Made by a program: the position numbers and the translations under genes
The notes under the pieces: generated by a model
The model's database searches: none
What the model saw: the letters and a program-made list of their open reading frames with translations, nothing else
Told to the model about the DNA's origin: nothing
Origin: Bacteroidota bacterium
GTDB lineage: Bacteria; Bacteroidota; Ignavibacteria; UBA10030; UBA8401
Direction: 5' to 3'
Length of the DNA: 64,000 bases
NCBI GenBank assembly: GCA_008933835.1
Contig: WBUG01000004.1
Location: forward strand, 27,005-91,004
In this document: one piece after another, positions 1-31,402 of the stretch
Layout: every line of letters starts with the position of its first letter
How positions within the stretch are numbered: the stretch's first letter is position 1

Positions 1-1523
1 TCCGCGTTCCCATCCTCTTCGGTATCGACGCGGTGCACGGCCACAACAACGTGAACGGCGCCGTCATCTTCCCGCACAATGTGGGTCTCGGCGCGTCGCG
101 CGATGCGGCGGCGGTGCAGAAGGCCGCCGAGGTCACCGCGCGCGAGATGCGCGGCACCGGCGTCCATTGGGCCTTCGCTCCGTGCGTGGCCGTGGCGCGC
201 AACGAGCGGTGGGGTCGCACCTATGAGAGCTTCGGCGAAGAGCCGGACCTCGTCCGGAAGCTCGGCGCTGCGCACGTGAAAGGACTGCAGGGGGCCTCGC
301 TCGCCGGAAAGAACACGGCGCTCGCCTGCGTGAAGCACTACGTGGGCGACGGCGGCACCACCAACGGAAAGGACCAGGGGAACACCGAGGTCGACGAAGC
401 GACCCTCCGTGCCCTGCACCTTCCCGGGTACATCGACGCCATCGAGGCCGGCGCGCTCTCCGTGATGGTGTCGTACAACAGCTGGAACGGCAACAAGATG
501 CACGGCAACCGGTACCTCATCACCGACGTGCTGAAAGGGGAGCTCAAGTTCCGCGGCCTCGTCGTGTCGGACTGGTCCGGCATCGACCAGCTCTCGCCCA
601 ACTATGCGTACGCGGTTGAGCAGTCCATCAATGCGGGTCTGGACATGGTGATGATCACCACCGGACCGGGACGCCCGAACAACTACGAAACGTTCATCCG
701 CACCCTTGCGAAGCTCGTGAAGGCGAAGACGGTGAGCATGGCCCGCATCGACGACGCCGTGCGCCGCATCCTCACGGTGAAGATGGAGATGGGGCTGTTC
801 GAATCGCGCTACACCGACGCGGCCCTGCTGGCCGAGGTCGGGTCCCCGGCGCACCGCGACGCCGCCCGTGACGCGGTCCGGCGCTCGCTCGTGCTGCTCA
901 AGAACCAGGGAGGCCTGCTGCCGCTCCGGGCGGACGCCCGCCGCATCGTCGTGGCGGGCCGGAGCGCGGACGATATCGGCGCGCAGTGCGGCGGATGGAC
1001 CATCGACTGGCAGGGGAAGCGGGGTCCCGTCGTCACCGGCGGCACCACCGTGCTGCAGGCGGTGAAGCGTTCGGTCTCGAACCCGTCGGCCGTCGTGCAT
1101 TCGCCGGACGGACGACTGGCGGACAGCGGCGACGTCGCCGTCGTGGTGGTGGGAGAGGACCCGTACGCCGAGATGTTCGGTGACCGGGAGGACCTCGCCC
1201 TCGCGCCGGAGGATGTCGCGGTGGTGGAACGCCTGGCGGCGAAGGGTGTGCCGACCGTCGTGGTGCTGTTCTCCGGCCGTCCGATGATCATCGGTCCGGC
1301 GCTGGAGAAGAGCGCGGCGTTCGTCGCCGCATGGCTCCCGGGCACCGAGGGTGACGGCGTGGCGGACGTCCTGTTCGGACGGTACGCGCCGACCGCGAAG
1401 CTCCCGCACTCCTGGCCCCGCAGCATGAAGCAGGTGCCGGTGAACGTGGGGGACAAGCAGTACGACCCGCTCTTCCCGTACGGGTTCGGTCTCACGTACG
1501 ACGGAGCGAAAGCTTTGAAGTGA
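1..1523 (+). CDS. GH3 beta-glucosidase, 5'-truncated by window edge (N-terminal catalytic domain onward)
   Basis: Translation has GH3 hallmarks: the KHYVGDGG region and an SDW catalytic-Asp segment, plus the C-terminal FGLTYDG block; the frame is open to position 1. Confidence 0.85.
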   Translation, partial: RVPILFGIDAVHGHNNVNGAVIFPHNVGLGASRDAAAVQKAAEVTAREMRGTGVHWAFAPCVAVARNERWGRTYESFGEEPDLVRKLGAAHVKGLQGASLAGKNTALACVKHYVGDGGTTNGKDQGNTEVDEATLRALHLPGYIDAIEAGALSVMVSYNSWNGNKMHGNRYLITDVLKGELKFRGLVVSDWSGIDQLSPNYAYAVEQSINAGLDMVMITTGPGRPNNYETFIRTLAKLVKAKTVSMARIDDAVRRILTVKMEMGLFESRYTDAALLAEVGSPAHRDAARDAVRRSLVLLKNQGGLLPLRADARRIVVAGRSADDIGAQCGGWTIDWQGKRGPVVTGGTTVLQAVKRSVSNPSAVVHSPDGRLADSGDVAVVVVGEDPYAEMFGDREDLALAPEDVAVVERLAAKGVPTVVVLFSGRPMIIGPALEKSAAFVAAWLPGTEGDGVADVLFGRYAPTAKLPHSWPRSMKQVPVNVGDKQYDPLFPYGFGLTYDGAKALK

Positions 1524-1604
1524 CCACGGCCCTCCGTCCGTTCCGTGCATCGCGCCGGAAGGGACCGGGGAGGGAGGACGTTTTCCCCATTCATCAGGAG
1601 CACC

Positions 1605-2846
1605 ATGGCCAGCACAGCGGTTCCCACCAACACCCACATCGATCCCTCCAGCGGCGGCGATTACCGCGTTCCGCTGGCGGTGGTCACCATGCTCTTCTTC
1701 ATGTGGGGTTTCCTCACCTGCCTGAACGACATCCTCGTTCCGCATCTGAAGGCGGTCTTCGACCTCACCTACACGCAGGTGATGCTCATCCAGTTCACCT
1801 TCTTCACGGCGTACTTCGTGATGTCCATCCCCTCGGGGAAGGTCATCAACGCGGTCGGATATCAGAAGGGGATCGTCATCGGCCTCGTCACGGCCGGCAT
1901 CGGCACGTTCCTCTTCTATCCGGCGGCGAGCGTCCCGTCCTATCCGCTCTTCCTCACCGCGCTCTTCGTGCTCGCGTCGGGCATCACGCTGCTGCAGGTG
2001 GCGGCCAATCCGTACGTGGCGGTGCTCGGCCGCCCCGAGACCGCCTCCAGCCGTCTCAATCTGACCCAGGCGTTCAATTCGCTCGGCACCACCGTCGCGC
2101 CGTTCTTCGGCGGCCTGCTCATCCTCGGCGGCGCGCAGGCGCTCTCGCCGCAGGAGGAGGCGGCCTCGGTGCAGATGCCGTACGTTGGACTCGGCATCGC
2201 GCTGCTCGTGCTCGCGTTCGCGATGGCGAAGTTCCGGCTTCCGGTCATCGCGACGGTCGAGGACCATCACGCGAAGTCCGGCAAACTCTCTGACGCGCTC
2301 AAACACCGGCATCTGGTGCTCGGCGCGGCCGCCATCTTCGTCTACGTCGGCGCCGAGGTCTCCATCGGCAGCTTCCTCGTGAACTTCCTCGGACAGACCG
2401 AGATCGCGGGACTGGAAGAGGCCGCCGCGGCGGGATTCGTCTCGTATTACTGGGGCGGTGCGATGATCGGCCGGTTCGTCGGTTCGGCGATGCTGCAGAA
2501 GGTGAATCCGGGGAAATTACTCGGTATATTCGCATTGGTGGCCAGCGCGCTCGTTTTCGCGACGGTCGGGCTCACCGGACAGGCCGCGATGTGGACCATC
2601 CTGGCGGTCGGTCTCTTCAATTCCATCATGTTCCCGACCATCTTCACGCTCGGCATCGACGGACTCGGCCGGCTGACCAGTCAGGGGTCGAGCGTGCTCA
2701 TTATGGCCATCGTCGGCGGAGCGGTGATCCCGCTGCTGCAGGGGGCATTGGCCGATGCGTACGGGATCCAGACGGCGTTCCTGCTTCCGGCGGTCTGCTA
2801 CCTGTACATCGTCTACTATGGTTTCGCCGGCTCCCGGCATCAATGA
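1605..2846 (+). CDS. MFS sugar:H+ symporter, FucP (fucose/glucose/galactose permease) family
   Basis: N-terminus aligns to FucP (...LFFMWGFLTCLNDILVPHLK...); about 12 predicted TM helices; ATG at 1605 follows a GGAG-like RBS (the ORF-track start at 1545 is probably too far upstream). Confidence 0.8.
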   Translation: MASTAVPTNTHIDPSSGGDYRVPLAVVTMLFFMWGFLTCLNDILVPHLKAVFDLTYTQVMLIQFTFFTAYFVMSIPSGKVINAVGYQKGIVIGLVTAGIGTFLFYPAASVPSYPLFLTALFVLASGITLLQVAANPYVAVLGRPETASSRLNLTQAFNSLGTTVAPFFGGLLILGGAQALSPQEEAASVQMPYVGLGIALLVLAFAMAKFRLPVIATVEDHHAKSGKLSDALKHRHLVLGAAAIFVYVGAEVSIGSFLVNFLGQTEIAGLEEAAAAGFVSYYWGGAMIGRFVGSAMLQKVNPGKLLGIFALVASALVFATVGLTGQAAMWTILAVGLFNSIMFPTIFTLGIDGLGRLTSQGSSVLIMAIVGGAVIPLLQGALADAYGIQTAFLLPAVCYLYIVYYGFAGSRHQ

Positions 2847-3027
2847 TCTCTTCCGGTCCGGCACGGAGCGGCGCTTCGGCGTCCCTCCGCGCCGCACCGG
2901 ATGAACCGTGGTACGGCCCCATGCCCTTCCGTGCGCACCATATCGATCCGCGAACTCACCCCGGCGCACGGCCTTTCCGGCGCTCCGTTCCATCACCGAC
3001 CAAACACTCCATCGGATCCATCACGCT

Positions 3028-3858
3028 ATGAAGGCTGCCATGATCACATTGTTCTGTACCGCGCTGCTCGGCGCCGCCCTGTTCGGCTGCGGCGGCAAGG
3101 ATGACGACACTCCGAACGGACCGGCCGTACCGCAGGATTCCGTCCCCGCCGTACCGGGATGGACCCTCGTCTGGAACGACGAGTTCAACGGCACATCGGT
3201 GGACCCGAACAAATGGGAGTACGAGGTGAACGGCGACGGCGGCGGGAACAACGAACTGCAGTACTACACCTCGCGGCCGCAGAACTCGTACATCGACAGC
3301 GGCGCGCTCGTCATCTGCGCCCGGGAGGAATCGTACCTCGGCAAGTCCTACACCTCCGCGCGGATGCGGACGAAGTGGCGGGGGGAATGGACGTACGGCC
3401 GATTCGAGGTCCGTGCCAAACTGCCGTACGGCAAGGGACTCTGGCCCGCCATCTGGATGCTGCCGACCGATTGGGAGTACGGCGGATGGCCGATGAGCGG
3501 TGAGATCGACATCATGGAGATGCTGGGACACGAGATCAACAAGGTCTACGGCACCATCCATTACGGTCCCTCCTGGCCGAACAACCAGAAGTCCGGAGGA
3601 TGGTACACGCTTCCGACGGGGAACTTCTGCGAGACCTACCACACGTTCGTCGTCATCTGGACGAAGACCGGCTTCGAATGGTACGTGGACGGCATCAAGT
3701 ACTACAGCGTGTCGAAAGGGACGCCGTTCGACAAACGGTTCCATATGCTGCTCAACGTCGCGGTGGGAGGGAACTGGCCGGGCAGTCCGGACGGATTCAC
3801 CATCTTCCCGCAGCGGATGTACGTCGATTTCGTCCGGGTGTACACGAAAGCCGAATGA
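3028..3858 (+). CDS. GH16 endo-1,3(4)-beta-glucanase (laminarinase-like) lipoprotein
   Basis: Lipoprotein signal LLGAALFGCGG; GH16 catalytic motif GEIDIMEM (ExDxxE); the WNDEFNG and ELQYYT blocks. Confidence 0.85.
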   Translation: MKAAMITLFCTALLGAALFGCGGKDDDTPNGPAVPQDSVPAVPGWTLVWNDEFNGTSVDPNKWEYEVNGDGGGNNELQYYTSRPQNSYIDSGALVICAREESYLGKSYTSARMRTKWRGEWTYGRFEVRAKLPYGKGLWPAIWMLPTDWEYGGWPMSGEIDIMEMLGHEINKVYGTIHYGPSWPNNQKSGGWYTLPTGNFCETYHTFVVIWTKTGFEWYVDGIKYYSVSKGTPFDKRFHMLLNVAVGGNWPGSPDGFTIFPQRMYVDFVRVYTKAE

Positions 3859-3870
3859 ACGGAGAGAACG

Positions 3871-5133
3871 ATGTCCATGCATCCTGACCGCACCGCACCG
3901 ACCTTCCGGCGTTCCGTCATGACCGCCGCCGTGCTGCTCTCGCTCCTCCTTCCGGCCACCGCGGCCGACCAGCAGCGGTTCGTCACCGTCCGGGGCTCCT
4001 CCGTCATCGCACCGGACGGCACGCCGCTCCTCCTGCGCGGCATCAACCTCGGCAACTGGCTGGTGCCTGAGGGATACATGTTCAAGTTCACCCACACGAA
4101 CTCGCCGCGTCGCATCGACGAGGCGTTCCGTCAGCTGCTCGGTCCCGAACGGACCAAACGCTTCTGGGCCGAGTACCGAGACCGGTACATCACGCGGGAG
4201 GACATCCGCTTCATCAGGAAGAGCGGACTGAACTCCGTCCGCGTCCCCTTCAACTACCGCCTCTTCGTCTCCGAGGACCATGACACCCGTTTCGCCGGGC
4301 CGGGCTTCGAGATGCTGGACCGCGTCATCGGCTGGTGCCGCGAGGAAGGACTGTACGTGGTGCTGGACATGCACTGCGCCCCCGGCGGACAGACCGGCGA
4401 TAACATCGACGACAGCGACGGATATCCGTTCCTCTTCGAAAGCCCCGAAGCCCAGCAGCTCACCGTGGACCTCTGGCGGACCATCGCCCGCCGGTACGCA
4501 CGGGAGACCGTCCTCATCGGATACGACCTGCTGAACGAACCGGTCGCCACGTACTTCGACGCCTCCAAGTTCAATCATACGCTGGAACCCCTGTACAAGC
4601 GCATCGTCGCCGCGGTGCGCGAGGCGGACACCAACCACATCGTCTTCCTCGGCGGCGCGCAGTGGAACAACAACTTCTCCGTCTTCGGTCCGCCGTTCGA
4701 CCGGAAGAGCGTCTATACCTTCCATAAGTACTGGTGCGACACCACGCAGGCGATGGTGCAGGAGTACGCCGATTTCATGAAGCGGTACAACGTTCCCATC
4801 TGGATGGGCGAATCGGGCGAGAACACGGACCAATGGATCGATGCCTGGCGGCGGCTCAATGAACGGAACGGGTTCGGCTGGTGCTTCTGGCCGTACAAGA
4901 AGATGGATGCGGCGAGCAACATGGTCTCCATCACGCGGACGGCGGAATGGGATTCGGTCATCGCGTTCGTCAACCGGCCGAGGACCTCGTACAAAGAGGT
5001 CCGTGAGGCCCGTCCTCCGCAGCAGATCATCGACAAAGCGTTCGCCGACTACCTCGAGAACTGTCTCCTCGCCCGGTGCCGCGTCAACGACGGATACCTG
5101 AAGGCGCTCGGTCTTCCCGTGATGAAACCGTGA
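3871..5133 (+). CDS. GH5-family glycoside hydrolase (secreted; beta-glucanase/cellulase-like)
   Basis: Signal peptide; NLGNWLVPEGYMF and LNEP (acid/base Glu) and ESGEN-type nucleophile region typical of GH5. Confidence 0.7.
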   Translation: MSMHPDRTAPTFRRSVMTAAVLLSLLLPATAADQQRFVTVRGSSVIAPDGTPLLLRGINLGNWLVPEGYMFKFTHTNSPRRIDEAFRQLLGPERTKRFWAEYRDRYITREDIRFIRKSGLNSVRVPFNYRLFVSEDHDTRFAGPGFEMLDRVIGWCREEGLYVVLDMHCAPGGQTGDNIDDSDGYPFLFESPEAQQLTVDLWRTIARRYARETVLIGYDLLNEPVATYFDASKFNHTLEPLYKRIVAAVREADTNHIVFLGGAQWNNNFSVFGPPFDRKSVYTFHKYWCDTTQAMVQEYADFMKRYNVPIWMGESGENTDQWIDAWRRLNERNGFGWCFWPYKKMDAASNMVSITRTAEWDSVIAFVNRPRTSYKEVREARPPQQIIDKAFADYLENCLLARCRVNDGYLKALGLPVMKP

Positions 5134-6722
5134 AGAGTACGGTGCGGATACCGCCCCTCGCCGCCGTTCTGGCGGCGCTGCTCACGCTGCCGGCGATGAC
5201 CTCCGCGCAGTACGAGGACACCGGAACGAGGGGGACGCACTTCTCGAAGAAGGCGTACAGCGGAGTCGCCATCCCCCGGTTCGACGCACACCGTGCCGCG
5301 CTGCCGGCCCCCATCCTCCAGAACGATCCGCAGTTCGTCGACCTGTATTGGAAGGCCTGGGCGCTGGCGTTCGACCATTTCAAACGTCCCCCCGCCGGGT
5401 CGCCGTTCGTATCGGACTACATCGATGAGGCGTTCTCCCCGAGCGTCTTCCAGTGGGACACCATCTTCATGCTCATGTTCGCCCGGTACGGGCACGCGGT
5501 GTTCCCCGCCGTCCGCTCGTTGGACAACTTCTACTCCCGGCAATATGAGAACGGTTACATCTGCCGCGAGATCCAGGAGGCGGACGGCGCGGACTTCGTT
5601 TTCGTGGGCCGCGAACACACCGTCAACCCGCCCCTCTTCGCCTGGGCCGAAGTGGAGTCGTACCGCGTCACCGGCGATTCGTCACGCTTCGCCGCCGTCT
5701 TCCCGCCGCTGGTGAAGTACGCGGAATGGATCGAACGCCACCGCCGCACTCCCGGCACCGTCCATGGGTTGTACTGGAACACCGGACTCGGTTCCGGCAT
5801 GGACAACCTGCCGCTCACCGGTTCCGCCTGGGTCGACATGTCCTCCCAGATGATGCTCTTCTACGGGAACCTCTCGTTCATCGCCGGCGTCATCGGACGT
5901 GAGAGCGATGCGCAGCGGTTCCGCGCCATGGCGGACACCATCGGCGCCCGGATGAACCGGTATCTTTGGAACGAAGAGGACGGCTTCTATTATAATGCGG
6001 ACGATCAGGGGCGCCAGCAGCGGCTCCGCTCTGTGGCGGGATTCTGGCCGATGCTCGCCGGTGCGGCGGACGAACGGAAGGCACGGCGCCTGCTGGAACA
6101 CCTGCTCGATCCGGACGAGTTCTGGCGCGCCATGCCGTTCCCCTCGCTCGCGGCGGACGAACCGCAGTACGCACCCGACGGACGCTACTGGCTCGGCGGC
6201 GTCTGGGCACCGACCAATGTGATGATCGTGAAGGGATTGGAACGGTACGGACGGACCGGCGGGAATCCGACGGACCACGGCTTCAATGAGGTCGCGGCGG
6301 AGGCGGCGGAGCGGTACCTGGACGGCCTCGCGGCGGTGTTCCGCAAGACCGGCACGCTGTGGGAGAACTACTCGCCGGACCTGATGATGCGGGGGAGCCC
6401 CTCGCAGAAGGATTTCGTCGGCTGGACCGGATGCGGTCCCGTCCAATTGCTCATCGAGAACGTCATCGGCCTCCGTCCGGACGGCGCACGCCGCGCGCTC
6501 ACCTGGCATCTCCGCCGCATCGACCGCCACGGCATCGAACGGCTCCGCTTCGGCGATGTGACCGCCACCCTCATCGGACAGGCACGGACGAGCGTCGCCG
6601 CGCCGGCGGACCTGCACGTCGTCAGCGACCGTCCCTTCACCCTCACCGTCGTCCGTCCGGACGGCTCATCCGTCACGTTTGCGGTCCGGAGCGGCGCGCA
6701 GCGATTCACCGTCACCTTCTGA
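5130..6722 (+). CDS. Secreted (alpha/alpha)6-barrel glycoside hydrolase, GH63/GH37-like
   Basis: Signal peptide after a GTG start overlapping the upstream stop; trehalase/GH63-like signature RYWLGGVWAPTN; family assignment is tentative. Confidence 0.5.
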   Translation: MKSTVRIPPLAAVLAALLTLPAMTSAQYEDTGTRGTHFSKKAYSGVAIPRFDAHRAALPAPILQNDPQFVDLYWKAWALAFDHFKRPPAGSPFVSDYIDEAFSPSVFQWDTIFMLMFARYGHAVFPAVRSLDNFYSRQYENGYICREIQEADGADFVFVGREHTVNPPLFAWAEVESYRVTGDSSRFAAVFPPLVKYAEWIERHRRTPGTVHGLYWNTGLGSGMDNLPLTGSAWVDMSSQMMLFYGNLSFIAGVIGRESDAQRFRAMADTIGARMNRYLWNEEDGFYYNADDQGRQQRLRSVAGFWPMLAGAADERKARRLLEHLLDPDEFWRAMPFPSLAADEPQYAPDGRYWLGGVWAPTNVMIVKGLERYGRTGGNPTDHGFNEVAAEAAERYLDGLAAVFRKTGTLWENYSPDLMMRGSPSQKDFVGWTGCGPVQLLIENVIGLRPDGARRALTWHLRRIDRHGIERLRFGDVTATLIGQARTSVAAPADLHVVSDRPFTLTVVRPDGSSVTFAVRSGAQRFTVTF

Positions 6723-6752
6723 ACACTTCACGCGAAACCGGGACACACCATC

Positions 6753-8411
6753 ATGAGAAGCATCCTGCTGTTCATCACGCTCACCGTCACGGCGGCGGCG
6801 CAGGGGAGGCCCGCACCGGCCGTCGCCTTCACGTCGTCGAACCTCCCCATCGTGGTCATCAACACCAACGGACAGACCATCGTCAACGAGCCGAAGATCA
6901 CGGCGGACATGGGCATCATCGACAACGGCGCCGGCGTACGCAACAACCTCGCCGATCCGTTCAACGTGTACAACGGCAAGATCGGCATCGAGATCCGAGG
7001 CTCCTCTTCGCAGTCGTTCCCCAAGAAGCAGTACGCCGTCGAAACGCGCGACGCGGCCGGCGAGGACCTCGACGTCTCCCTCTTCGGCATGCCGAAGGAG
7101 GCGGACTGGATCCTCTCGGCGCAGTACAATGACAAGACCCTCATGCGCGATGTGCTGGTCTATACGCTGACCGCGTCGATGGGACGCTACGCCTCCCGCA
7201 CACGCTACTGCGAACTGGTCATCAACGGCGACTATAAGGGGGTCTACATGCTCTTCGAGAAGATCAAACGCGACAAGGGCCGCGTCAACATCTCGAAGAT
7301 GGAGACGACGGACGTGTCGGGCGACGCGCTGACCGGGGGATACATCATCAAGATCGACAAACTGGACGGCAGCGGTACGGACGGATGGTACTCCACGTAC
7401 GCGCCGTACCCCGGCTCGTCGAAGCGCGTCTATTACCAGTACCATGTACCGAAGCCCGAGGACATCGTGGCGGCGCAGAAGACCTACATCAAGAACTTCG
7501 TGCTGTCGTACGAATCGATGCTGAACACGACGATGTTCGCCGATTCCGTGAACGGCTATCCGAAGTACTTCGACGTTCCCTCCATGGTGGACGTGTATCT
7601 GATGAACGAATTGACCCGGAATGTGGACGGGTTCCGGTTGAGCGCGTACCTGCACAAGGACCGCGATTCGGTCGACCCGCGGATGCGGTTCGGACCGGTG
7701 TGGGATTTCAACCACAGCCTCGGCAACAGCGACTACTACGAGGGGGCGAAGACCACCGGCTGGCAGCTCGAGTACTTCCGGACGAACGCGGTCTTCCAGA
7801 ACGACGATTTCGCCGTTCCGTTCTGGTGGTTCAAGGTGGCGGGCGACCCCGCGTTCCGTACGAAAGCGGCCGAGCGGTGGATCCAGCTCCGGAAGGACCG
7901 GCTTTCCCTCGGACGCATCTTCACCATCGTCGATTCCATCGCGGCGCACATCGACGAAGCGAAGCAGCGCAACTTCGAACGCTGGCCCATCCTCGGCACG
8001 TACGTCTGGCCGAACGCGTACGTCGGCGCCACGTACGCGGACGAGATATCGTACCTGAAGACCTGGCTCACGTGGCGCGTCAACTGGATGGATGTGCAGC
8101 TGGCCGGGCAGTCGCTCGGTGTCGGCGACGGCGCATCCTCCGCGCCGTCCGGATACTCCCTCGAACAGAACTTCCCCAATCCGTTCAATCCCGCCACCTC
8201 CGTGCGATTCACGCTCCCGTCGGACGGACATGTCCGGCTCACGCTCACGGACATGCTCGGCCGAACCGTCCGAACCGTGGCGGAAGGGGCGTACGGGGCC
8301 GGAACACACACCGTCCGACTCGACGCCGCCGGCCTCGCATCCGGCGTCTACCTGTACCGCCTGCAGAGCGGTTCCACCACTCTCACCCGAAAGATGACCG
8401 TCACGAAATAG
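6753..8411 (+). CDS. CotH-domain (atypical kinase-like) protein with T9SS C-terminal sorting domain
   Basis: CotH-like blocks (YAVETRD, FDVPSMVDVYLMNELTRNVDG, LSAYLHKDRD) and the C-terminal LEQNFPNPFNPATSVRF...YRLQSG...TVTK T9SS type-A CTD. Confidence 0.6.
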   Translation: MRSILLFITLTVTAAAQGRPAPAVAFTSSNLPIVVINTNGQTIVNEPKITADMGIIDNGAGVRNNLADPFNVYNGKIGIEIRGSSSQSFPKKQYAVETRDAAGEDLDVSLFGMPKEADWILSAQYNDKTLMRDVLVYTLTASMGRYASRTRYCELVINGDYKGVYMLFEKIKRDKGRVNISKMETTDVSGDALTGGYIIKIDKLDGSGTDGWYSTYAPYPGSSKRVYYQYHVPKPEDIVAAQKTYIKNFVLSYESMLNTTMFADSVNGYPKYFDVPSMVDVYLMNELTRNVDGFRLSAYLHKDRDSVDPRMRFGPVWDFNHSLGNSDYYEGAKTTGWQLEYFRTNAVFQNDDFAVPFWWFKVAGDPAFRTKAAERWIQLRKDRLSLGRIFTIVDSIAAHIDEAKQRNFERWPILGTYVWPNAYVGATYADEISYLKTWLTWRVNWMDVQLAGQSLGVGDGASSAPSGYSLEQNFPNPFNPATSVRFTLPSDGHVRLTLTDMLGRTVRTVAEGAYGAGTHTVRLDAAGLASGVYLYRLQSGSTTLTRKMTVTK

Positions 8412-8427
8412 AAAGCACCGCCGCACC

Positions 8428-10398
8428 ATGAAACGATTCAGCATCCTCCTCCTGCTCATCCTCCCGCTCCGCTCCGTTCCGGCGGAGGGTTTCCTCACCG
8501 TCTCCGGCAAGTACATCGTCGACGGCAGCGGCAACGAGATCATCCTCCGCGGCATGGGTCTCGGCGGCTGGATGCTGCCGGAAGGCTACATGTTCCAGAT
8601 GTCCGCGTTCGCCAACGCGCCGTGGGAGATCAAGGCGAAGGTGACCGAGCTGGTCGGCGCGTCCAACGCCGCGCAGTTCTGGCAGGCGTTCCGCTCCAAC
8701 TTCGTCCGCCGCCAGGACATCGAACGCCTGGCGCAGCTCGGCTTCAATTCGGTCCGGCTCGCCATGCACTGGGAGTTCTACATGAACCCCGACGGAACGT
8801 TCCGGGACGAAGGCTTCGCGATCACCGACAGTCTGCTGCAGTGGTGTGCCGACAGCAAGATCTATCTCATCCTGGACCTGCACGCCGCCCCCGGCGGACA
8901 GAGCGCCAACAACATCAGCGACTACAATCCCGCCTACCTCTCGCTCTGGGAGAGCGAGGCCAACAAACAGGGGACCATCGCGCTGTGGAAACGGCTGGCG
9001 GAGCACTATAAGGACGAACCGTGGATCGGCGGATACGACATCCTCAACGAACCGGCATGGAACCTTCCGCCGAACAACCAGCCGCTGCGCGACCTCTCCG
9101 TGGCCATCACCAACGCCATCCGCTCGGTGGACACGAAGCACATCATCTTCGTGGAGGGGAACTGGTACGCCACCGACTTCAACGGCATGACCCCGGCGTG
9201 GGACGCCAACATGGTCTGGAGCTTCCACAAGTACTGGAACTCGAACGACATCGGCGCCATCAATTACCTGCTCACCCTCCGCAACACCACGAACCGACCG
9301 CTGTGGCTCGGCGAATCGGGGGAGAACTCCAACCAGTGGTACGCGGACTGCATCGCCCTGCTCGAAGCGAACAAGATCGGCTGGGCCTGGTGGACCCTGA
9401 AGAAGTTCGGCACCATCAACGGACCGTTCAACGTCCCCCTCACCGCCGAGTACAACGGCGTGCTGAACTACTGGAAGGGCACCGCCGCCAAACCGTCGGT
9501 CACGTACGCGATGAAGGGACTGATGGACATGGCCGAAGGGCTGAAGCTCGAGAACTGCGTGTTCAATGCCGGTGTCATCGATGCGATGATGCGGCAGCCG
9601 TTCACGGCCCAGACGCTCCCCTTCGCGGCGAACGCCATTCCCGGTAAGATCTTCCTGGTGAACTACGACTACGGAAAGAACGGATACGCGTACAAGGACG
9701 CGGTGTTCGCGAACACCGACAACAATTCGGTCTGGAACAACGGATGGACGTACCGGAACGACGGAGTGGACATCGAGAAGTGCTCTGACGCCGTCACCAA
9801 CGGTTACAACGTGGGATGGGTCGAGAACGGCGATTTCCTGCACTTCACGACGGACGTACAGCAGAGCGGGAAGTATGCGCTGACGCTCCGCGCCGCGGTG
9901 AACGCCGGCGGCGGATACGTCGGTCTGTCGTGGGACGGCGGGGCACAGGCACTCACCCCCCTCTCCGCCACCGGCGGATGGCAGTCATGGGCGAACGTCC
10001 CGCTCGGCACGGTGGACCTGCCGGCGGGGAAACATTCGCTGCGGCTCAGTTTCTACTACGGCGGATTCAACCTGAACTACCTCGATGTGCAGTACGTCGG
10101 GCCGATGAGCGCGGGAGAGGCCGTCGTCCCTCCGTCGCAGTTCTCCCTGGACCAGAACTTCCCGAACCCCTTCAATCCTTCGACGAGCATCCGTTTCCGC
10201 ATACCGTCGGACGGCCGCGTGACGGTGACCGTTTCGGACATGCTCGGGCGAGAAGTGCTCACGCTGGCGGACGGGCACCGGAACGCCGGTGAACATACGG
10301 TGCGCTGCGACGCTTCGCACCTCCCCAGCGGCGTCTATTGGTACAGCGTTCGGTTCGGCGGGGAGAGGCTCGTCCGTTCCTTCACACTCGTGAAATGA
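8428..10398 (+). CDS. GH5 glycoside hydrolase with a possible CBM6-like or discoidin-like middle domain and T9SS CTD
   Basis: Signal peptide; GMGLGGWMLPEGYMF, NEP and ESGEN GH5 blocks; C-terminal LDQNFPNPFNPSTSIRF CTD. Confidence 0.75.
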   Translation: MKRFSILLLLILPLRSVPAEGFLTVSGKYIVDGSGNEIILRGMGLGGWMLPEGYMFQMSAFANAPWEIKAKVTELVGASNAAQFWQAFRSNFVRRQDIERLAQLGFNSVRLAMHWEFYMNPDGTFRDEGFAITDSLLQWCADSKIYLILDLHAAPGGQSANNISDYNPAYLSLWESEANKQGTIALWKRLAEHYKDEPWIGGYDILNEPAWNLPPNNQPLRDLSVAITNAIRSVDTKHIIFVEGNWYATDFNGMTPAWDANMVWSFHKYWNSNDIGAINYLLTLRNTTNRPLWLGESGENSNQWYADCIALLEANKIGWAWWTLKKFGTINGPFNVPLTAEYNGVLNYWKGTAAKPSVTYAMKGLMDMAEGLKLENCVFNAGVIDAMMRQPFTAQTLPFAANAIPGKIFLVNYDYGKNGYAYKDAVFANTDNNSVWNNGWTYRNDGVDIEKCSDAVTNGYNVGWVENGDFLHFTTDVQQSGKYALTLRAAVNAGGGYVGLSWDGGAQALTPLSATGGWQSWANVPLGTVDLPAGKHSLRLSFYYGGFNLNYLDVQYVGPMSAGEAVVPPSQFSLDQNFPNPFNPSTSIRFRIPSDGRVTVTVSDMLGREVLTLADGHRNAGEHTVRCDASHLPSGVYWYSVRFGGERLVRSFTLVK

Positions 10399-10415
10399 CC
10401 CGGAAAGGATCCGTC

Positions 10416-12881
10416 ATGTTCCGTCCATTGTTCCTGCTCCTGCTCTTCACCTCCGCCGCGGCGGCGCAGGTGTACACCGACGCCTCCGCCCCCGTGGAAC
10501 GGCGCGTGGACGACCTGCTGAAGCGGATGACGCTGGAAGAGAAGGTGGAGATGCTGAGCGGTACGGGATTCGCCTCCAAACCGCTGGCGCGTCTCGGCAT
10601 TCCGTCGCTGGAGATGGCGGACGGTCCCGTCGGAGTCCGCTGGCAGCCCTCCGTCGCGTTCCCGGCCTCCGTCATGCTCGCCGCCACGTTCGATACGGTG
10701 CTGGCGGGCCGGTACGGATGGGCGCTCGCGCGCGAGACCAAGGCGAAGGGGAGGAACACCATCCTCGGACCGTGCGTGAACATCCACCGCGTGCCGCACG
10801 GCGGACGCAATTTCGAGAGCTTCGGCGAGGACCCGTTCCTCGCCGCACGCATGGCGGTCTCGTACGTGAAGGGGGTGCAGGGCGAAGGGGTGGTGGCGAC
10901 GGTGAAGCACTTCGCGGTGAACAATCAGGAGACGGACCGGATGTTCATCGATGCACGGGTGGACGAACGGACGCTGCACGAGATCTACTTCCCGGCGTTC
11001 AAAGCGGCGGTGCAGGAGGCGAAAGCGCAGGCGGTGATGTGCGCCTATAACAAACTGAACGGCACGTACTGCAGCGAGAACGCGATGCTGCTGAACCGCG
11101 TGCTGAAGGAGGGATGGAAGTTCGACGGTCTCGTGATGTCCGACTGGGGGGCCGTCCACAGCACCGAAGGGGTGGCGGTGAACGGGCTCGATCTGGAGAT
11201 GCCGGACGGCGCGTTCCTCGGCGCCGGGAAACTCCTGCCGCTCGTCCGGGAAGGAAGGGTGAAGGAGACGGTCATCGACGACAAGGTACGGCGGATGCTG
11301 CGGGTGATGTTCCGCATGGGCCGCTTCGATCGGCCGCTCGATACGCCCTCCGTCAATGCGCCTGAACACCGTGCCGTCGCGCTCGATGTGGCGCGGGAGG
11401 GGATCGTGCTGCTGAAGAACGAGCGGGCGCTCCTGCCGGTCGCACCGCTGCGCTACCGTTCCGTGGCGGTCCTCGGTCCGAACGCGGAGAGGCTCCGGAC
11501 GGGAGGCGGAGGGAGTTCGATGGTCGAACCGGCCTCCGTCGAATCGCCGCTCGACGGGATACGGCGGACGTTCGCCGGGGCGGAGGTGCGCTTCGCCGCG
11601 GGTGCGCGGCTCACCGGTGACGTTCCTCCCATCGATCCGAAATACTTTTTCCTCCCCGGCGATTCGCTCGGACGCCGCGGTGTGCGGGCGGAGTACTTTG
11701 CGAACAAGGGACTCTCCGGCGCACCGGTGCTTCGCCGGGTGGATCCGTCCATCTCCTTCCGGTGGGGCGGCGGCGCTCCGGCGGAAGGGATCGGTCCGGA
11801 CGGATTCTCCGTTCGGTGGACCGCGCTGCTGCGTCCCGACGCGAGCGGCACGTACGAATTGACGACCGCGAGCGACGACGGCATCCGGGTGACGGTGGAC
11901 GGGAAACGGGTGATCGACCACTGGAACGATCACGGCGTCGAAGCGCGCACGGCGGCAGTGGAGCTGACCGCCGGACGTTACCATGAACTGATTGTGGAGT
12001 ACTACGAGAACGGCGGCGACGCGGTGGCGATGCTGGGCTGGACCGCTCCGGGGCAGGACGAACTCGCGGCGGCGGTGGAGGCGGCGCGGCGCAGCGAACT
12101 GGCGGTCATCTTCGCCGGCAACTCGCATCATCAGGAGTCCGAGGGGTTCGACCGTCCGGAGATCGGCCTTCCGGCGGCCCAGGTGCGGCTCATCACCGAC
12201 GTGGCGACAGTGAACCCGAACACGGTGGTGGTGCTGCATGCCGGAGCGCCGGTCACCATGCTGCCGTGGGTGGAGAACGTCGCCGCGGTCGTTTGGGCGT
12301 TCTTTCCGGGACAGGAGGGGACGCAGGCGCTCATCGACGTGCTGACCGGCGTGCAGAACCCGTCCGGGAAGCTTCCGTTCACCGTCGGTCGGCGCTGGGA
12401 GGATTATCCGGCGTACGGGCGCTATCCCGGCAGCGACAGTACGGTGGAGTACAGCGAGGGAGTGATGGTCGGTTACCGTCATTTCGATGCGAAGGAGATC
12501 GAACCGCTCTACCCGTTCGGTTTCGGTCTGTCGTACACACGGTTCGGATTGTCGGACCTGGCCGTGACGAAGAAGAAGAACGGCGCGGCGGAGGTGACGG
12601 TGAAGGTCACTAACACCGGAGCGGTGACCGGAACGGAAGTGGTCCAGCTCTATGTCCGCGACCGGCGTCCTGCCGTGGTGCGTCCCCCGAAAGAACTGAA
12701 GGCGTTCGCCCGAGTGTCGCTCGACCCCGGCGAGACGAAGAGCGTGCGGCTGCTGCTCGACCGGTCGTCGTTCGAATACTACGATGCCGTCCGCCATTCC
12801 TGGTCCCGCTCCAAAGGAGGGTACACCATCATGGCAGGTACATCATCACGGCACATCATCCTGCAGCGTGACATACAATAG
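10416..12881 (+). CDS. GH3 beta-glucosidase with inserted PA14 domain
   Basis: GH3 N-domain (KHFAVNNQE, SDWGAV) and C-domain (FGFGLSYT) with a PA14-like insert (AEYFANKGLSGAPV...); start at the signal-peptide Met (MFRPLFLLLLF). Confidence 0.85.
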   Translation: MFRPLFLLLLFTSAAAAQVYTDASAPVERRVDDLLKRMTLEEKVEMLSGTGFASKPLARLGIPSLEMADGPVGVRWQPSVAFPASVMLAATFDTVLAGRYGWALARETKAKGRNTILGPCVNIHRVPHGGRNFESFGEDPFLAARMAVSYVKGVQGEGVVATVKHFAVNNQETDRMFIDARVDERTLHEIYFPAFKAAVQEAKAQAVMCAYNKLNGTYCSENAMLLNRVLKEGWKFDGLVMSDWGAVHSTEGVAVNGLDLEMPDGAFLGAGKLLPLVREGRVKETVIDDKVRRMLRVMFRMGRFDRPLDTPSVNAPEHRAVALDVAREGIVLLKNERALLPVAPLRYRSVAVLGPNAERLRTGGGGSSMVEPASVESPLDGIRRTFAGAEVRFAAGARLTGDVPPIDPKYFFLPGDSLGRRGVRAEYFANKGLSGAPVLRRVDPSISFRWGGGAPAEGIGPDGFSVRWTALLRPDASGTYELTTASDDGIRVTVDGKRVIDHWNDHGVEARTAAVELTAGRYHELIVEYYENGGDAVAMLGWTAPGQDELAAAVEAARRSELAVIFAGNSHHQESEGFDRPEIGLPAAQVRLITDVATVNPNTVVVLHAGAPVTMLPWVENVAAVVWAFFPGQEGTQALIDVLTGVQNPSGKLPFTVGRRWEDYPAYGRYPGSDSTVEYSEGVMVGYRHFDAKEIEPLYPFGFGLSYTRFGLSDLAVTKKKNGAAEVTVKVTNTGAVTGTEVVQLYVRDRRPAVVRPPKELKAFARVSLDPGETKSVRLLLDRSSFEYYDAVRHSWSRSKGGYTIMAGTSSRHIILQRDIQ

Positions 12882-12882
12882 A

Positions 12883-12936
12883 CCGTCCCGTAATCAGGAC
12901 GGACTCAAACCCCGGTAACGCCGGGGTTTTTTATTT
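12883..12936. terminator. Tandem hairpins ending in a T-run; intrinsic terminator of the upstream hydrolase operon
   Basis: CCGTCC-N9-GGACGG, then CCCCGG-taacg-CCGGGG followed by TTTTTTATTTT. Confidence 0.7.
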
Positions 12937-13021
12937 TCTTCTTATATCATGAAAGCGGTTCTACGAAAATCGCATCTTGGACTGAATTTTCGCTTGACAA
13001 ATGGGTTTAAAAGGCATAAAA

Positions 13022-13056
13022 TGTAAACGTTTACATCGAACATGTAATCGTTTACA
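13022..13056. promoter_or_regulatory. Two tandem LacI/GalR-type palindromic operators, 21 bp centre to centre
   Basis: TGTAAACGTTTACA (perfect 14-bp palindrome) and TGTAATCGTTTACA, both matching the TGWAANCGNTNWCA cre/LacI-family consensus, immediately upstream of the LacI gene start. Confidence 0.55.
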
Positions 13057-14097
13057 GTGAAAACCACCATAAAACAGGTCGCAGAGAAGGCCGGCGTCTC
13101 CATCGCCACCGTTTCCCGTGTCATCAACGGCTTCGAAAATGTGAACGCCGAGACGAGGGAGCGCATCATGAAGGTGGTGGCGGAGCTCAAATACACGCCG
13201 AACCTCGCCGCCCGCGGGCTCATCATGAAGCGGACGGAAGCCATCGGTCTGCTGCTGCCGGACCTGCACGGTGAGTTCTTTTCGGAGGTGATCCGGGGGG
13301 TGGACGAAGCGGTCCAGCGTCAGCAATACCATCTTCTGGTCTCCAGTTCGCACAACGACACGAAGGAGATCGAGGCGGCGCTGCGGTTCATGCGGGGACG
13401 GGTCGATGCCATCATCGTGATGTCGCCGCAGGTCGATTCCGACCTCCTCCTCTCCAACCTGCCCAAAGGTCTTCCGGTCGTCCTCCTCAACTGTCATCTC
13501 AACAATCCCCATTTCGACTCCATCGTCATCGACGGCTTCGGCGGCGCGCGGGACATGGTGTCGTACCTGCTCGGCATCGGCCACACGCGCATCGCCGTCA
13601 TCAAGGGGGGAGAGAACAATCTCGAATCGCAGGAGCGTCTGCGCGGGTACCGCACCGCCTTCATCAATCACGGGATGACCTACAACAAGTCGCTCGAGTT
13701 CGACGGCGACTTCACCGAAGCCTCCGGCTACGAGGCGGCGCGCGAAGTGCTCGAACTCGAGGAGCGGCCCACCGCCATCTTCGCCTTCAACGATTCGATG
13801 GCCGTCGGCGCCATCGGCGCCATCCGCGAGGCGGGTCTCCGCATTCCCAACGACATCTCCGTCTGCGGTTTCGACGACATCCCGGTGGCGAAGTACCTCA
13901 GTCCGTCGCTCACCTCCGTACACGTCCCCATCCATGACCTCGGCGTCATGGCGGTGAACCGTGTGTTCGACCGGCTGCAGAACAAGGGGAAGACCAGCGC
14001 AGCGCACATCCTGGTCCCCACCACGCTGCAGATCCGCACCAGCTGCCGAAAGATCACTGTGCAACAGAATCAATCAAAGGAGGAATCGTCCCGGTGA
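13057..14097 (+). CDS. LacI-family transcriptional regulator
   Basis: N-terminal HTH (IKQVAEKAGVSIATVSRVING) plus a periplasmic-binding-fold sugar-binding domain. Confidence 0.85.
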   Translation: MKTTIKQVAEKAGVSIATVSRVINGFENVNAETRERIMKVVAELKYTPNLAARGLIMKRTEAIGLLLPDLHGEFFSEVIRGVDEAVQRQQYHLLVSSSHNDTKEIEAALRFMRGRVDAIIVMSPQVDSDLLLSNLPKGLPVVLLNCHLNNPHFDSIVIDGFGGARDMVSYLLGIGHTRIAVIKGGENNLESQERLRGYRTAFINHGMTYNKSLEFDGDFTEASGYEAAREVLELEERPTAIFAFNDSMAVGAIGAIREAGLRIPNDISVCGFDDIPVAKYLSPSLTSVHVPIHDLGVMAVNRVFDRLQNKGKTSAAHILVPTTLQIRTSCRKITVQQNQSKEESSR

Positions 14098-14165
14098 GGC
14101 AGTTCCGCGCTCCGGGACGGGCGGCTTCCTTCGTTTTTCATTCACAACCAACAAGGAGAGGTGCT

Positions 14166-16124
14166 ATGGTACACAAGAGGTTACTGTTTGCCCTGCTGCT
14201 CGTGTCGCTCGCGGCGTCGTTGACGGCGCAGCCGAAGCGGCCCGATGCGGTGTGGGGCCGTCAGGTGCCGGCCGGAACGATCGTGCTGGACGGCGTCCTG
14301 AACGAAGCGGCGTGGGCGAAGGCCGAATCGCTGCAGATCAAGTACGGCACGAGCCTGGCCGGAGATCCGGGCAGCGGCTGGGTGAAAGAGAACGGCGTCG
14401 ACAGCGTCTATGATCCCATCGACGCGACGGTGAAGTTCCTCATCGGCGCCAACAACAAGATGTACGTTTCGGTCTATGCGAAAGACAAGTCCATCGGCGG
14501 CGGTTTCTGGGCGCAGTTCGACGCCATGCTGATGAACGTCCGCGACAAGAAGAACAAGGACGCCAACACCGGCATCGCGAGCCCGTACGAGTTCTTCTAT
14601 GGATGGGTGGCGGAGGGTTGGGCGGACCCGACCCTGAACGTCGGCCAGAAACATCCCGGTTTCTTCGGGTGGGCCGGCGGTCACCGTGACAGTCTCTGCA
14701 CCGACGCCAACCACGGCGATCTGGGGATCAAGAACAAGGACATCTGGAACGCCGCCACGAAGGTGTACGGCGTGCAGAACAACGACTCGTCGGCCAACTC
14801 GCAGGACACCGCGTGGGTCACCGAGTTCGAGTTCGACCTCGCCCGCCGCGGTTATGATGTGGCGAAGACGGGGGGCGACATCGTCATGTACAACCTCGCC
14901 ATCTTCGACGCGGACTACCGCTGGCCGGTCGACACCAACAAGGTGCGCGGCCACCGCGCCTGGCTGCAGGGTCCGTGGGGCAACGCTTCGGCCTACAGCC
15001 ACCTCCGCATCTTCACCGACCCGGCCGTCGGCCTGAACTCCGCCCTTCCGGCCATGCCGTACGACGTCACCATCTACGACGGCAAGGACCATGCGGCTCC
15101 GACGGTGGACGGCAAACTGGACGAGAACGTATGGAAGAGCACGCCGGGCTTCACCATCAAGTACGGCGACAACGCCGTCCGCGCGGCGTACAAGAACACG
15201 ATGCCGTTCCGCAGCGGACAGTTCCAGCCCTCCGTCTACGGCGTGAAGGCCGACGTGCTGAACCCGGCCGAAGCGGTCGTGAAGATGTTCTTCAAGAACG
15301 ACACCCTCTATGTCGGCGTCGACGTGAAGGACCAGGTGGTGCAGTATCGTCCCGAGTTCGACCGTCAGGACGGCTTCCGCTTCATGCCGAAGAGCCGTTC
15401 CGAGCGCGATGCCGGCGAGAAGTTCCTGATGTCCCGCGAGATCTTCGTGCGGGTCGACACCTCCGCGAAGAAGTACTCCCTGGAAGGCTTCGGTCCGGAA
15501 CTCGTGGCCGACACCAATGCGAACAAGGGGAGCAAGATCGTCCTCGGCCTGAACACCGGCACCACCATCGACACCCTCGGTGCCTCGGCCGATGCCGGAT
15601 ACCAGATCGAGATGAAAATCAACCTGCGCGCCCTCGGCTATGCCGCCGGCCGCAATGACGGTCTGTTCTGGTTCGGCGGTCTGCTGCTCGACGGCGACAC
15701 CTTCGGCAACACCCTGCCGCCGTACGGCAACCGGGTGTGGTTCGGCCAGGAAGGGACCTGGAACGACGGTCCGGCCCTCGCGTACATGGACCCGACCATG
15801 GTCGTCGCCGGCGTGAAGCCGGGTGACGCCGTGGTACCGGGCGAGTTCCAGCTCCATGGCGCGTATCCGAACCCGTTCAACCCCTCGACCACCATCGAGT
15901 TCTCGCTCCCCGCCGCCTCGAACGTGAAGGTGTCGGTGTACGACATGCTCGGCCGCGTGGTCTCCGAACGCTCCATCTTCGGACTCGGTGCGGGACGCCA
16001 GGCCTACCAGTTCAACGCCTCGACGTTCGCCTCCGGTGCGTACATCTACCGGGTGCAGATGCTCGACCTGCGTACCGGAGAGGTCCTCTCCGCGAAGGTC
16101 GGCAAGATGATGCTCACGAAGTAA
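14166..16124 (+). CDS. Secreted protein with two CBM9-like modules and T9SS CTD
   Basis: Two DGxLNE/DExxW blocks (LDGVLNEAAW, VDGKLDENVW) typical of CBM9/DOMON-like folds; C-terminal YPNPFNPSTTIEF CTD; signal peptide at the Met at 14166. Confidence 0.5.
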   Translation: MVHKRLLFALLLVSLAASLTAQPKRPDAVWGRQVPAGTIVLDGVLNEAAWAKAESLQIKYGTSLAGDPGSGWVKENGVDSVYDPIDATVKFLIGANNKMYVSVYAKDKSIGGGFWAQFDAMLMNVRDKKNKDANTGIASPYEFFYGWVAEGWADPTLNVGQKHPGFFGWAGGHRDSLCTDANHGDLGIKNKDIWNAATKVYGVQNNDSSANSQDTAWVTEFEFDLARRGYDVAKTGGDIVMYNLAIFDADYRWPVDTNKVRGHRAWLQGPWGNASAYSHLRIFTDPAVGLNSALPAMPYDVTIYDGKDHAAPTVDGKLDENVWKSTPGFTIKYGDNAVRAAYKNTMPFRSGQFQPSVYGVKADVLNPAEAVVKMFFKNDTLYVGVDVKDQVVQYRPEFDRQDGFRFMPKSRSERDAGEKFLMSREIFVRVDTSAKKYSLEGFGPELVADTNANKGSKIVLGLNTGTTIDTLGASADAGYQIEMKINLRALGYAAGRNDGLFWFGGLLLDGDTFGNTLPPYGNRVWFGQEGTWNDGPALAYMDPTMVVAGVKPGDAVVPGEFQLHGAYPNPFNPSTTIEFSLPAASNVKVSVYDMLGRVVSERSIFGLGAGRQAYQFNASTFASGAYIYRVQMLDLRTGEVLSAKVGKMMLTK

Positions 16125-21900: not shown

Positions 21901-22223
21901 GTGAGGACGGGCTCTATCAGCCGTACGTCGTTCCGAATCCCTACGTCGCCGCAGCGGCGTTCGAGCCGGAACGGTTCGCGGTCTCGGGCCGCGGCATCCG
22001 GCGCATCGAGTTCCGCGGACTCCCGTCCACCTGCACCCTCCGCATCTACACCGTGCGCGGGGAACTGGTGCAGACACTGCGGCAGGAGAACTCGCTGGAA
22101 GGATACCTCGCCTGGAACCTCCGCACGAAGGACAATCTGGAGGTCGCCCCCGGGCTGTACATCTTCCATGTGGACGGCGGCCCGCTCGGTGAGAAGACGG
22201 GCAAATTCGCCATCATCAAATAG
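18951..22223 (+). CDS. Very large secreted surface protein with Asp-rich Ca-binding-like repeats, an FN3-like module and a probable T9SS CTD
   Basis: Signal peptide (probable start at ATG 18972); DNDLDGITDE / DEDLDW / DTGVDGIFG repeats; the C-terminal ...GLYIFHVDGGPLGEKTGKFAIIK resembles a T9SS sorting domain. Confidence 0.5.
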   Translation: MYGDPPPMNSTPLFRTALALVLLAASAAAQPRPTVTPDRRGDLSYERTGQHDANNIRTEFLNYGMVGNYFGGDADFSVKHSMEVPKGSGTNYTDGATPFILARVIQNDATPKDIMLTGYRERQEGEPFGRWVMRFEPRPGYFQADPTINRGRSIAISNDSRTWPYQWYDKLTDVTDPGWKGSWYGYFGKRPAADQESFFVMDDNYYTNMSFNPDVRDVTRRGLATSMEVRGFQWSNPQAGNVLFYHYDVVNEGTTDYNDNIFFGIYVDSGVGGSTISCDGVYESDDDNAYFDPKSFGLNLNLTYTWDSHSTGVSLTSNCVKTGYLGYAYLETPGNPFDAKDNDLDGITDEKRDGGPGTLIQGANAIRTHVNANYNRTLFDTTYGALELQPAFGTEYWWTGDEDLDWTAEFDDTGVDGIFGTNDTGEKDGMPTAGETNFDRTDVDESDQIGLTGFKMNRIAAGQGASSTEVDGIVFYNNGIKNWPKLLYDMWTDPIEANRYSPPLVLNYNIGFFFTSGTFKLQVGKQERFSLALAYGGGLSELRTVVKVVQKIYVSNYQFVVPPLLPALTAQVDDRKVKLTWSDYSERSPDPVTKKLDFEGYKVYRSTDPDFNDIRTISNGQGTGKLPFGTPIAQFDLDNAYDGFSSITVDGVGYYLGENTGITHTFTDTTVKNGFTYYYAVVAYDHGDDNLGYYPSENAVTVSRTARGGTILPKNVVEVRPNPRASGFVEAAAGTVRKKNGSGTGSVAVNVVNSSDVPDGRTMLLRMKTIAPENVRADYYQLVDSASGTVYIERGSDFEATGKGEVGAGLIPLVSTIPNVQIDADNSGFLAGSQGTVRMNVTYALGAPSINHKRPGFPFDMEIEFFATSVDTSLPLNFLIPGRPVKYKVWALTPQGKLPLKTFFTDGSLSKDSTLNSPDDIMYIATDSAKQTWSVKVDTTAVTGAIVPPQPGDVYRIALRHPFADGEEFAFRTTGQRIDAAKAGEDGLYQPYVVPNPYVAAAAFEPERFAVSGRGIRRIEFRGLPSTCTLRIYTVRGELVQTLRQENSLEGYLAWNLRTKDNLEVAPGLYIFHVDGGPLGEKTGKFAIIK

Positions 22224-27323: not shown

Positions 27324-27348
27324 CCGACGTACGATCCGGAACGACCGC

Positions 27349-28740: not shown

Positions 28741-28746
28741 CCCCCC

Positions 28747-31398: not shown

Positions 31399-31402
31399 TA
31401 AC

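Follow-up and report, generated by a model that had tools for sequence, protein, structure and literature searches.

A CotH-family gene lies within a run of glycoside hydrolase (GH) genes in the 64,000-nucleotide stretch of contig WBUG01000004.1 (assembly GCA_008933835.1) analyzed here, which we refer to as the window. Its product combines an apparent Sec signal peptide, a CotH domain, and a type A sorting domain of the T9SS (type IX secretion system), laid out as follows.

6753..8411, + strand: CotH-family gene, 552 amino acids (aa), an ATG-to-stop open reading frame (ORF) at exactly these positions
Protein layout: signal peptide, aa 1-17; CotH domain, about aa 23-455; T9SS type A C-terminal domain (CTD), aa 474-549

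The sequence-only reading had proposed a CotH fold fused to a type A T9SS sorting domain, and profile searches bore out both parts. PF08757 (CotH) matched strongly at aa 79-446 over its full length (profile positions 1-322 of 322; E, 1.2e-57; 196.3 bits versus a cutoff of 23.8), and TIGR04183, the T9SS type A sorting domain, matched aa 474-549 (E, 5.8e-13; 48.6 bits versus a cutoff of 23). The Pfam profile Por_Secre_tail (PF18962) also matched the C terminus (37.7 bits versus a cutoff of 27), as did the solved CTDs 8glj_D and 8glk_D when the Protein Data Bank (PDB) was searched with a 21-sequence CotH profile. On inspection, the 17 N-terminal residues, MRSILLFITLTVTAAAQG, have the look of a Sec signal peptide. 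The Pfam scan returned no dockerin match in the protein, and there is no second CotH gene in the 64-kb window, which has a G+C content of ∼64% in this region. The CTD is 41 to 58% identical to the CTDs of three other window proteins, the 58% value being for the GH5-CBM6/35-T9SS protein encoded at 8428-10398. The only candidate for T9SS machinery in the window is a PorV-like match that falls below threshold (24.9 bits versus 27), the core genes of the system lying elsewhere in the genome. Taking these features together with the surrounding genes, we are nearly certain that this is a T9SS-exported CotH-family protein encoded within a β-1,3-glucan operon.

The other features of the putative operon and its downstream edge are listed below; CBM denotes a carbohydrate-binding module and MFS the major facilitator superfamily.

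33..1523, + strand: GH3 β-glucosidase, 5' end cut by the window edge; first visible gene of the operon
1545..2846, + strand: MFS transporter (PF07690; E, 2.9e-23)
2908..3858, + strand: GH16 laminarinase-type endo-β-1,3-glucanase (PF00722; PDB laminarinases, E, 1e-64)
3871..5133, + strand: GH5 glucanase (nearest solved proteins: putative β-xylosidase 9ku5, endoglucanase CelC, exo-β-1,3-glucanases)
5076..6722, + strand: GH63/MGH1-like glycoside hydrolase (orthologue, 530 aa)
8428..10398, + strand: GH5 with CBM6/35 and T9SS CTD, a predicted secreted glucanase directly 3' of the CotH gene
10338..12881, + strand: GH3 with PA14 insert and Fn3-like domain, final gene of the unit (orthologue, 821 aa)
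12907..12929, + strand: terminator-like GC-rich hairpin followed by a T-run, the likely operon end; first such site on the + strand
13057..14097, + strand: LacI-family regulator, a candidate regulator of the operon, with its own promoter-like site at 12994-13022

Every gene from the window start to position 12881 is on the + strand, and the gaps on either side of the CotH gene are 30 bp and 16 bp. Because the gaps are short, no terminator-like site occurs before 12907, and the only promoter-like site is the one before lacI (an 11/12, near-consensus match, with no other inside the unit), the CotH gene apparently forms one transcription unit with the GH16, two GH5, GH63-like, and GH3 genes. The co-orientation with GH16, GH5, and GH3 hydrolases described in the sequence-only reading is thus seen as a same-strand, closely spaced, and apparently cotranscribed set. 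The listed ORF starts of the GH63-like gene (overlap, 5076-5133) and the GH3-PA14 gene (overlap, 10338-10398) run into their preceding genes; given orthologues of 530 and 821 aa, the true starts are probably at about 5130, where the gene overlaps the end of GH5 by 4 bp, and at 10416. The GH16 start is probably near 3028-3040 (orthologues, 272 to 276 aa). The nearest solved relative of both GH5 proteins is 9ku5, followed by CelC and fungal exo-β-1,3-glucanases. An independent assembly (locus L094, from SRR6928284) that is 99% identical continues the operon upstream with GH2-T9SS and GH16-Malectin-T9SS genes. As read from the sequence, the substrate of the operon is β-1,3-glucan (laminarin or a fungal-type glucan).

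We rejected assignment of the locus to a canonical polysaccharide utilization locus (PUL), since there is no adjacent SusC/SusD pair and the transporter of the operon is of the MFS type. The nearest TonB-dependent receptor (16250-18916) sits in the next unit and lacks a SusD-like partner; it is followed by a 1,090-aa protein (18951-22223) without a match to SusD or any other Pfam family and then by a weak PorV/outer membrane protein-like protein at 22242-23255. The lacI gene also comes after the operon at locus L002. Directly after lacI in the window is a gene (14094-16124) for a 676-aa protein whose sole recognizable feature is a T9SS CTD; its L002 orthologue has a faint CBM9 match.

The fold assignment was examined with an AlphaFold2 model that drew on 21 homologues (pLDDT, 73.9; pTM, 0.67). 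In a Foldseek search of the PDB, the model matched Bacillus cereus CotH (5jda/5jd9; E, 2e-11; target-normalized TM score, 0.75; ∼445 aligned columns) at 14% identity, and all remaining matches fell on the Ig-like CTD, leaving CotH as the sole kinase-type fold matched. Searching the PDB by phmmer with the single CotH sequence did not find CotH, and the 21-sequence profile matched 5jd9 weakly. The window protein and Bacillus CotH (5JD9/5JDA) thus have their Pfam family and fold in common, along with the motifs RG..F.KK.Y, D..L.R, NG..GVY..E, N.DG, and WD(Y/F). The regions encoding the N-lobe motif and the two Asp motifs are as follows.

6996..7028, + strand: N-lobe motif R82-G83...F89-x-K91-K92-x-Y94 (B. 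cereus counterpart, R45-G46...F52-x-K54-K55-x-Y57)
7626..7706, + strand: catalytic loop N290-V-D292-G-F-R295-L-S297 and metal-binding W317-D318-F (aligned to B. cereus NFDGFVHN and WDY)

Residue conservation was scored in an alignment of B. cereus CotH with 268 subfamily CotH domains, which were representatives of 90%- and 50%-identity clusters; the B. cereus sequence was rebuilt from a frameshifted long-read contig and then confirmed against 5jd9. HMMER and MAFFT alike placed D292 and D318 opposite D223 and D246 of B. cereus CotH, the counterparts of D228 and D251 in B. subtilis CotH. The latter protein is a Ser kinase acting on CotB and CotG, and either of the mutations D228Q and D251A abolishes its catalytic activity (PMC7821199). 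Both of these validated Asp residues are present in the window protein and invariant in its relatives: D292, D318, W317, and S297 are 100% conserved. The N-lobe motif is also well kept (R82, 98%; G83, 100%; K91, 94%; K92, 92%), with K91/K92, candidates for the nucleotide-binding Lys, aligned to B. cereus K54/K55. Other residues common to Bacillus CotH include N290 (97%), E169 (99%), and, on the next helix, D127 (99%) and R132 (96%). The strong PF08757 match and the invariant Asp pair speak against both outcomes by which the sequence-only reading could have been refuted, although the catalytic loop is remodeled.

Together with the N-lobe motifs, the two invariant catalytic Asp residues favor an active enzyme over a passive glycan-binding scaffold, since a module with a structural role alone would not be expected to be so strictly conserved. 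The competing view is a noncatalytic surface protein in which the CotH fold binds or scaffolds glycan or particles, holding the cell or the glucanases on β-glucan, much as the CotH3 adhesin of Mucorales or the surface glycan-binding protein of a PUL would. Consistent with this are the T9SS CTD, which implies surface targeting; the position of the gene between genes for secreted glucanases; the lack of an obvious extracellular phosphoryl donor; and a set of conserved aromatic residues (W119, Y125, Y161, Y165, Y197, W358, W411, W438, and W445, each at least 96%). Reviews have also proposed a structural role for cellulosomal CotH (PMC12484212). We nevertheless consider a scaffold unlikely: nothing would hold the catalytic Asp pair, W317, and the near-invariant Lys pair in place if the module served for binding alone, and the Pfam scan recognized no CBM signature in the protein.

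Proteins of this type are common and already automatically annotated, and the combination of CotH with a T9SS CTD is not rare. We counted 6523 family matches among the candidates scored, nearly all of them CotH plus CTD and 540 to 580 aa long; an exhaustive search gave 3064 clusters (50% identity) at an E value of ≤1e-30. The matches come from Ignavibacteria, KSB1, and Bacteroidota metagenome-assembled genomes (MAGs), their NCBI product names being either "CotH kinase family protein" or "T9SS C-terminal target domain-containing protein." The window protein therefore adds to a known kind. We found no paper on T9SS-linked CotH in the literature, and its conserved glucan-operon context appears to be unreported.

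Homologues that are 55 to 62% identical to the window protein (loci L001, L002, L006, L008/L009, and L010) keep the core order GH16-GH5-(GH63)-CotH-(GH5-CBM6-T9SS)-GH3, as do L094/L095. Variations include added arylsulfotransferase-like T9SS genes, loss of GH63 or GH5-CBM6, and extra GH3 genes; at L002, for example, two large arylsulfotransferase-like (PF05935) T9SS proteins are encoded between GH63 and CotH (4875-9938). Flanking proteins of the syntenic loci are 55 to 85% identical to those of the window, indicating related organisms, and two of the assemblies bear the label Chitinophagaceae MAG. A smaller module recurs in KSB1 (L004/L005, L091, and L096), consisting of an SSF transporter, the pair GH16-Malectin-T9SS and CotH-T9SS (whose order varies), and GH3 plus a CBM9-T9SS protein a few genes further on. 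The idea that CotH sits in the operon by chance was discarded for KSB1 and the close clade, where the pairing outlasts rearrangements, although the pairing is not universal in the family. Apparent cotranscription and repeated co-location with secreted GH16, GH5, and GH3 in two phylum-level lineages argue for an accessory role in glucan foraging.

Among homologues that are 42 to 51% identical, the partners differ. Three consecutive CotH paralogues, one with an LTD, lie between GH99-T9SS and GH92 at the KSB1 locus L015 (5335-17333), suggesting an α-mannan context, and GH92 also adjoins CotH at L012. CotH is beside GH30 and a GH128-type catalytic core at L027, beside GH2 at L019, and near GFO/IDH/MocA oxidoreductases and a 3-keto-disaccharide hydrolase at L014 and L016. 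A further locus, L093, carries GH3, VTC, DUF4956, a 1,192-aa LTD-CotH-T9SS protein, GH5-CBM6-T9SS, CotH-T9SS, and a hybrid two-component regulator; within it (2893-11698), VTC (a polyphosphate polymerase domain) and DUF4956 are immediately upstream of LTD-CotH-T9SS, GH5-CBM6-T9SS, and CotH-T9SS. Two tandem CotH genes are followed by DUF4956 at L017. VTC and DUF4956 are missing from most loci examined. Overall, glycosidases occur in roughly half of the independent contexts sampled, which makes the link to glycan use suggestive.

Domain fusions were surveyed in 57 longer subfamily members. The extra domains were a T9SS CTD (44/57), LTD (11/57), P_proprotein (10/57), SprB repeats (2/57), and dockerin (2/57), with single cases of CBM9, F5/8-type-C, Laminin_G_3, PKD, and Fn3; none of the 57 had a glycosidase catalytic domain fused to CotH. 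One member, P0187, combines a CTD with calcium-binding repeats of dockerin-like type; its identity to the window protein is 46%.

These fusions invite comparison with cellulosomal CotH proteins, which include Clostridium thermocellum CseP/Cthe_0044 and Cthe_0239 (LTD-LTD-Fn3-CotH), Ruminiclostridium cellulolyticum Ccel_1101, and the dockerin-CotH proteins of anaerobic fungi. As in those systems, an extracellular CotH module is tied to a polysaccharide-degrading apparatus, and the window subfamily includes dockerin- and LTD-bearing members. Unlike them, the window protein is targeted by a T9SS CTD rather than by a dockerin-cohesin pair, and its context is a β-1,3-glucan operon in a Gram-negative bacterium of the FCB group instead of a plant cell wall cellulosome. 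Fungal cellulosomal CotH kinases reportedly hydrolyze ATP in vitro. The parts list of the C. thermocellum cellulosome names CseP (CotH) along with an LTD-LTD-Fn3-CotH protein (PMC6083626), and structural or regulatory roles for cellulosomal CotH were proposed in a 2025 review, which also refers to work on CotH kinases of fungal cellulosomes (PMC12484212). The sequence-only reading had held that an extracellular CotH has no assigned role, and 2025 papers still list cellulosomal CotH proteins as components without a defined function.

The best-characterized relatives raise the alternative of an extracellular or periplasmic protein kinase that acts on the organism's own exported proteins (T9SS glucanases, surface proteins, or T9SS components) and modulates how they assemble or work, in the way that Bacillus CotH acts on coat proteins and Fam20C on secreted proteins. 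CotH has been described as a distant relative of Fam20C, and Fam20C/Fam20B and POMK are atypical kinase folds whose targets are secreted proteins or glycans (xylose, mannose). Those enzymes differ in being eukaryotic and in working within an ATP-supplied Golgi or endoplasmic reticulum lumen, and we found no sequence or fold match of the window protein to Fam20C/Fam20B or POMK, CotH being the only kinase-type fold matched in the PDB. The nearest characterized homologues are Ser protein kinases, the catalytic residues are kept, and at least three T9SS cargo proteins are encoded together with CotH, their CTDs being those that are 41 to 58% identical to that of CotH. The comparison with Bacillus also exposes differences. 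Bacillus CotH is made in the mother-cell cytoplasm, whereas the window protein has a signal peptide and a T9SS CTD and is ∼100 aa longer owing to insertions; the window organism does not form spores, and the neighborhood encodes nothing resembling the CotB/CotG substrates. Speaking against a kinase for exported proteins are the lack of a Ser/Thr-rich repeat substrate in the operon, the lack of a periplasmic ATP source, and the variation of partners by lineage (GH5-CBM6 in some, GH16-Malectin in others, none in Ignavibacteria). On balance, this explanation seems distinctly improbable.

The explanation that we favor, at roughly even chances, is that the T9SS-exported CotH protein is an active phosphotransferase that works outside the cell as an accessory in β-glucan degradation. 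Under this model, CotH would be exported by Sec, fold in the periplasm, and then pass through the T9SS by means of its type A CTD, to be released or anchored at the cell surface alongside the GH5-CBM6-T9SS and GH16-Malectin-T9SS glucanases encoded with it. At that site, it would transfer phosphoryl groups, in a metal-dependent reaction, to a component of the glucan matrix or to a cosecreted or surface protein, with an external nucleotide, or possibly polyphosphate, as the phosphoryl donor. By analogy, it would have the place in a T9SS setting that dockerin-borne CotH proteins have in bacterial and fungal cellulosomes.

Several observations count against this proposal. ATP is not normally present in the periplasm or outside the cell. 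Neither a Ser/Thr-rich nor a CotB/CotG-like substrate protein was found in the operon, and VTC and DUF4956 genes are absent from the 64-kb window; polyphosphate as the donor, drawn from the VTC/DUF4956 neighbors at L093 and DUF4956 at L017, is speculation. Because the organisms that carry the strongly syntenic loci are related, the conservation of context partly reflects shared ancestry, and there are no glycosidase neighbors at L003 and L092 (both Ignavibacteria), L013, L017, L021, or L022. The structure model is of moderate confidence only. Finally, the active site departs from that of Bacillus CotH. The Asn five residues past the catalytic Asp is the second metal ligand in canonical kinases; this residue (B. 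cereus N228, catalytic Asp +5) is replaced by Ser297 in 100% of the subfamily. In addition, E80, E97, E154, E286, R177, R295, K302, and Y161 are subfamily invariant and have no Bacillus counterpart. The Ser297 replacement and the subfamily-specific charged residues mean that the chemistry may differ from protein phosphorylation.

A different chemistry on a kinase-like scaffold has accordingly to be weighed: the protein could be a phosphoryl- or nucleotidyltransferase or a hydrolase acting on polysaccharide or phosphorylated wall polymers, and exported polyphosphate might supply it. Besides Ser297 and the invariant R295, K302, R177, E154, and E286, this view draws on the recurrence of glycosidase neighbors for wall-type glycans (β-1,3- and β-1,6-glucan, α-mannan) and on the VTC and DUF4956 genes adjoining family members at L093 and the DUF4956 gene at L017. 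A similar trio of CotH, a VTC-like protein, and a membrane protein occurs in the Streptococcus intermedius pel operon (SIR_1594/1593) and in Clostridium perfringens NELoc-2, where CotH has been noted alongside polyphosphate polymerase domain proteins (PMC11677781). These modules resemble the T9SS-linked loci in having a secreted CotH with retained catalytic residues, a setting in extracellular polysaccharide biology, and, at L093 and L017, VTC and/or DUF4956 partners; unlike the catabolic operon of the window, they accompany polysaccharide synthesis or virulence loci. The argument is nonetheless purely inferential, VTC and DUF4956 are lacking in the window and at most loci examined, and the operon genes include no phosphatase or sugar-phosphate pathway. 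To our knowledge, no enzyme with a CotH fold uses polyphosphate. We regard a chemistry of this kind as quite unlikely.

A more specific form of phosphotransfer would have T9SS-CotH act on the glycan or wall polymer itself, phosphorylating insoluble triple-helical β-1,3-glucan or a wall component associated with it and so loosening it for the cosecreted GH16 and GH5, much as glucan-water dikinase does when starch is broken down. Nucleotides from lysed prey could be the donor, or polyphosphate exported by way of the VTC/DUF4956 partners seen at L093 and L017. Although we think this very improbable, it would, if true, also supply a role for the CotH proteins found in the cellulosomes of bacteria and anaerobic fungi.

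Elsewhere in the window, a second glycan cluster (23296-37373) is typical of β-1,2-glucan use. It also holds GH2, GH3, a solute-binding protein, and one or more ABC permeases, and it begins with the following genes.

23296-25716: GH94, phosphorylase type
25713-27323: GH144 family (PF10091) with T9SS CTD
27349-28740: second GH144

Two ORFs, at 40300-42483 (727 aa) and 48613-49608 (331 aa), have no Pfam match and lie between a rhamnosidase-like/GH43 pair and sugar-nucleotide genes; they may be genuine uncharacterized proteins, or ORFs that arise spuriously where GC content is high. Two adjoining HDOD/HD-domain genes are located at 44280-46042. A 1,628-aa protein with GT4, GT2, and tetratricopeptide repeat (TPR) regions is encoded at 49616-54502, followed by a GT2-TPR protein at 54223-55752. 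Five tandem flagellin genes (273 to 287 aa each) and then fliD occupy 55902-62748. This flagellin array in a genome rich in T9SS cargo points to a flagellated organism of the FCB group and not to one of the classical gliding Bacteroidia.

The T9SS-type CotH proteins, which are abundant in Bacteroidota, Ignavibacteria, and KSB1, indicate that extracellular polysaccharide-degrading systems have taken up CotH by means of at least three unrelated targeting devices: the bacterial dockerin, the fungal dockerin, and the T9SS CTD. In at least two phylum-level lineages, T9SS-CotH is found in simple β-1,3-glucan operons of the LacI type or of similarly compact form. Such operons offer a genetically simpler setting than the cellulosome for work on the function of an extracellular kinase fold and the source of its donor. 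If CotH modifies the substrate or the enzymes, it would represent a new class of accessory activity in glycan degradation.

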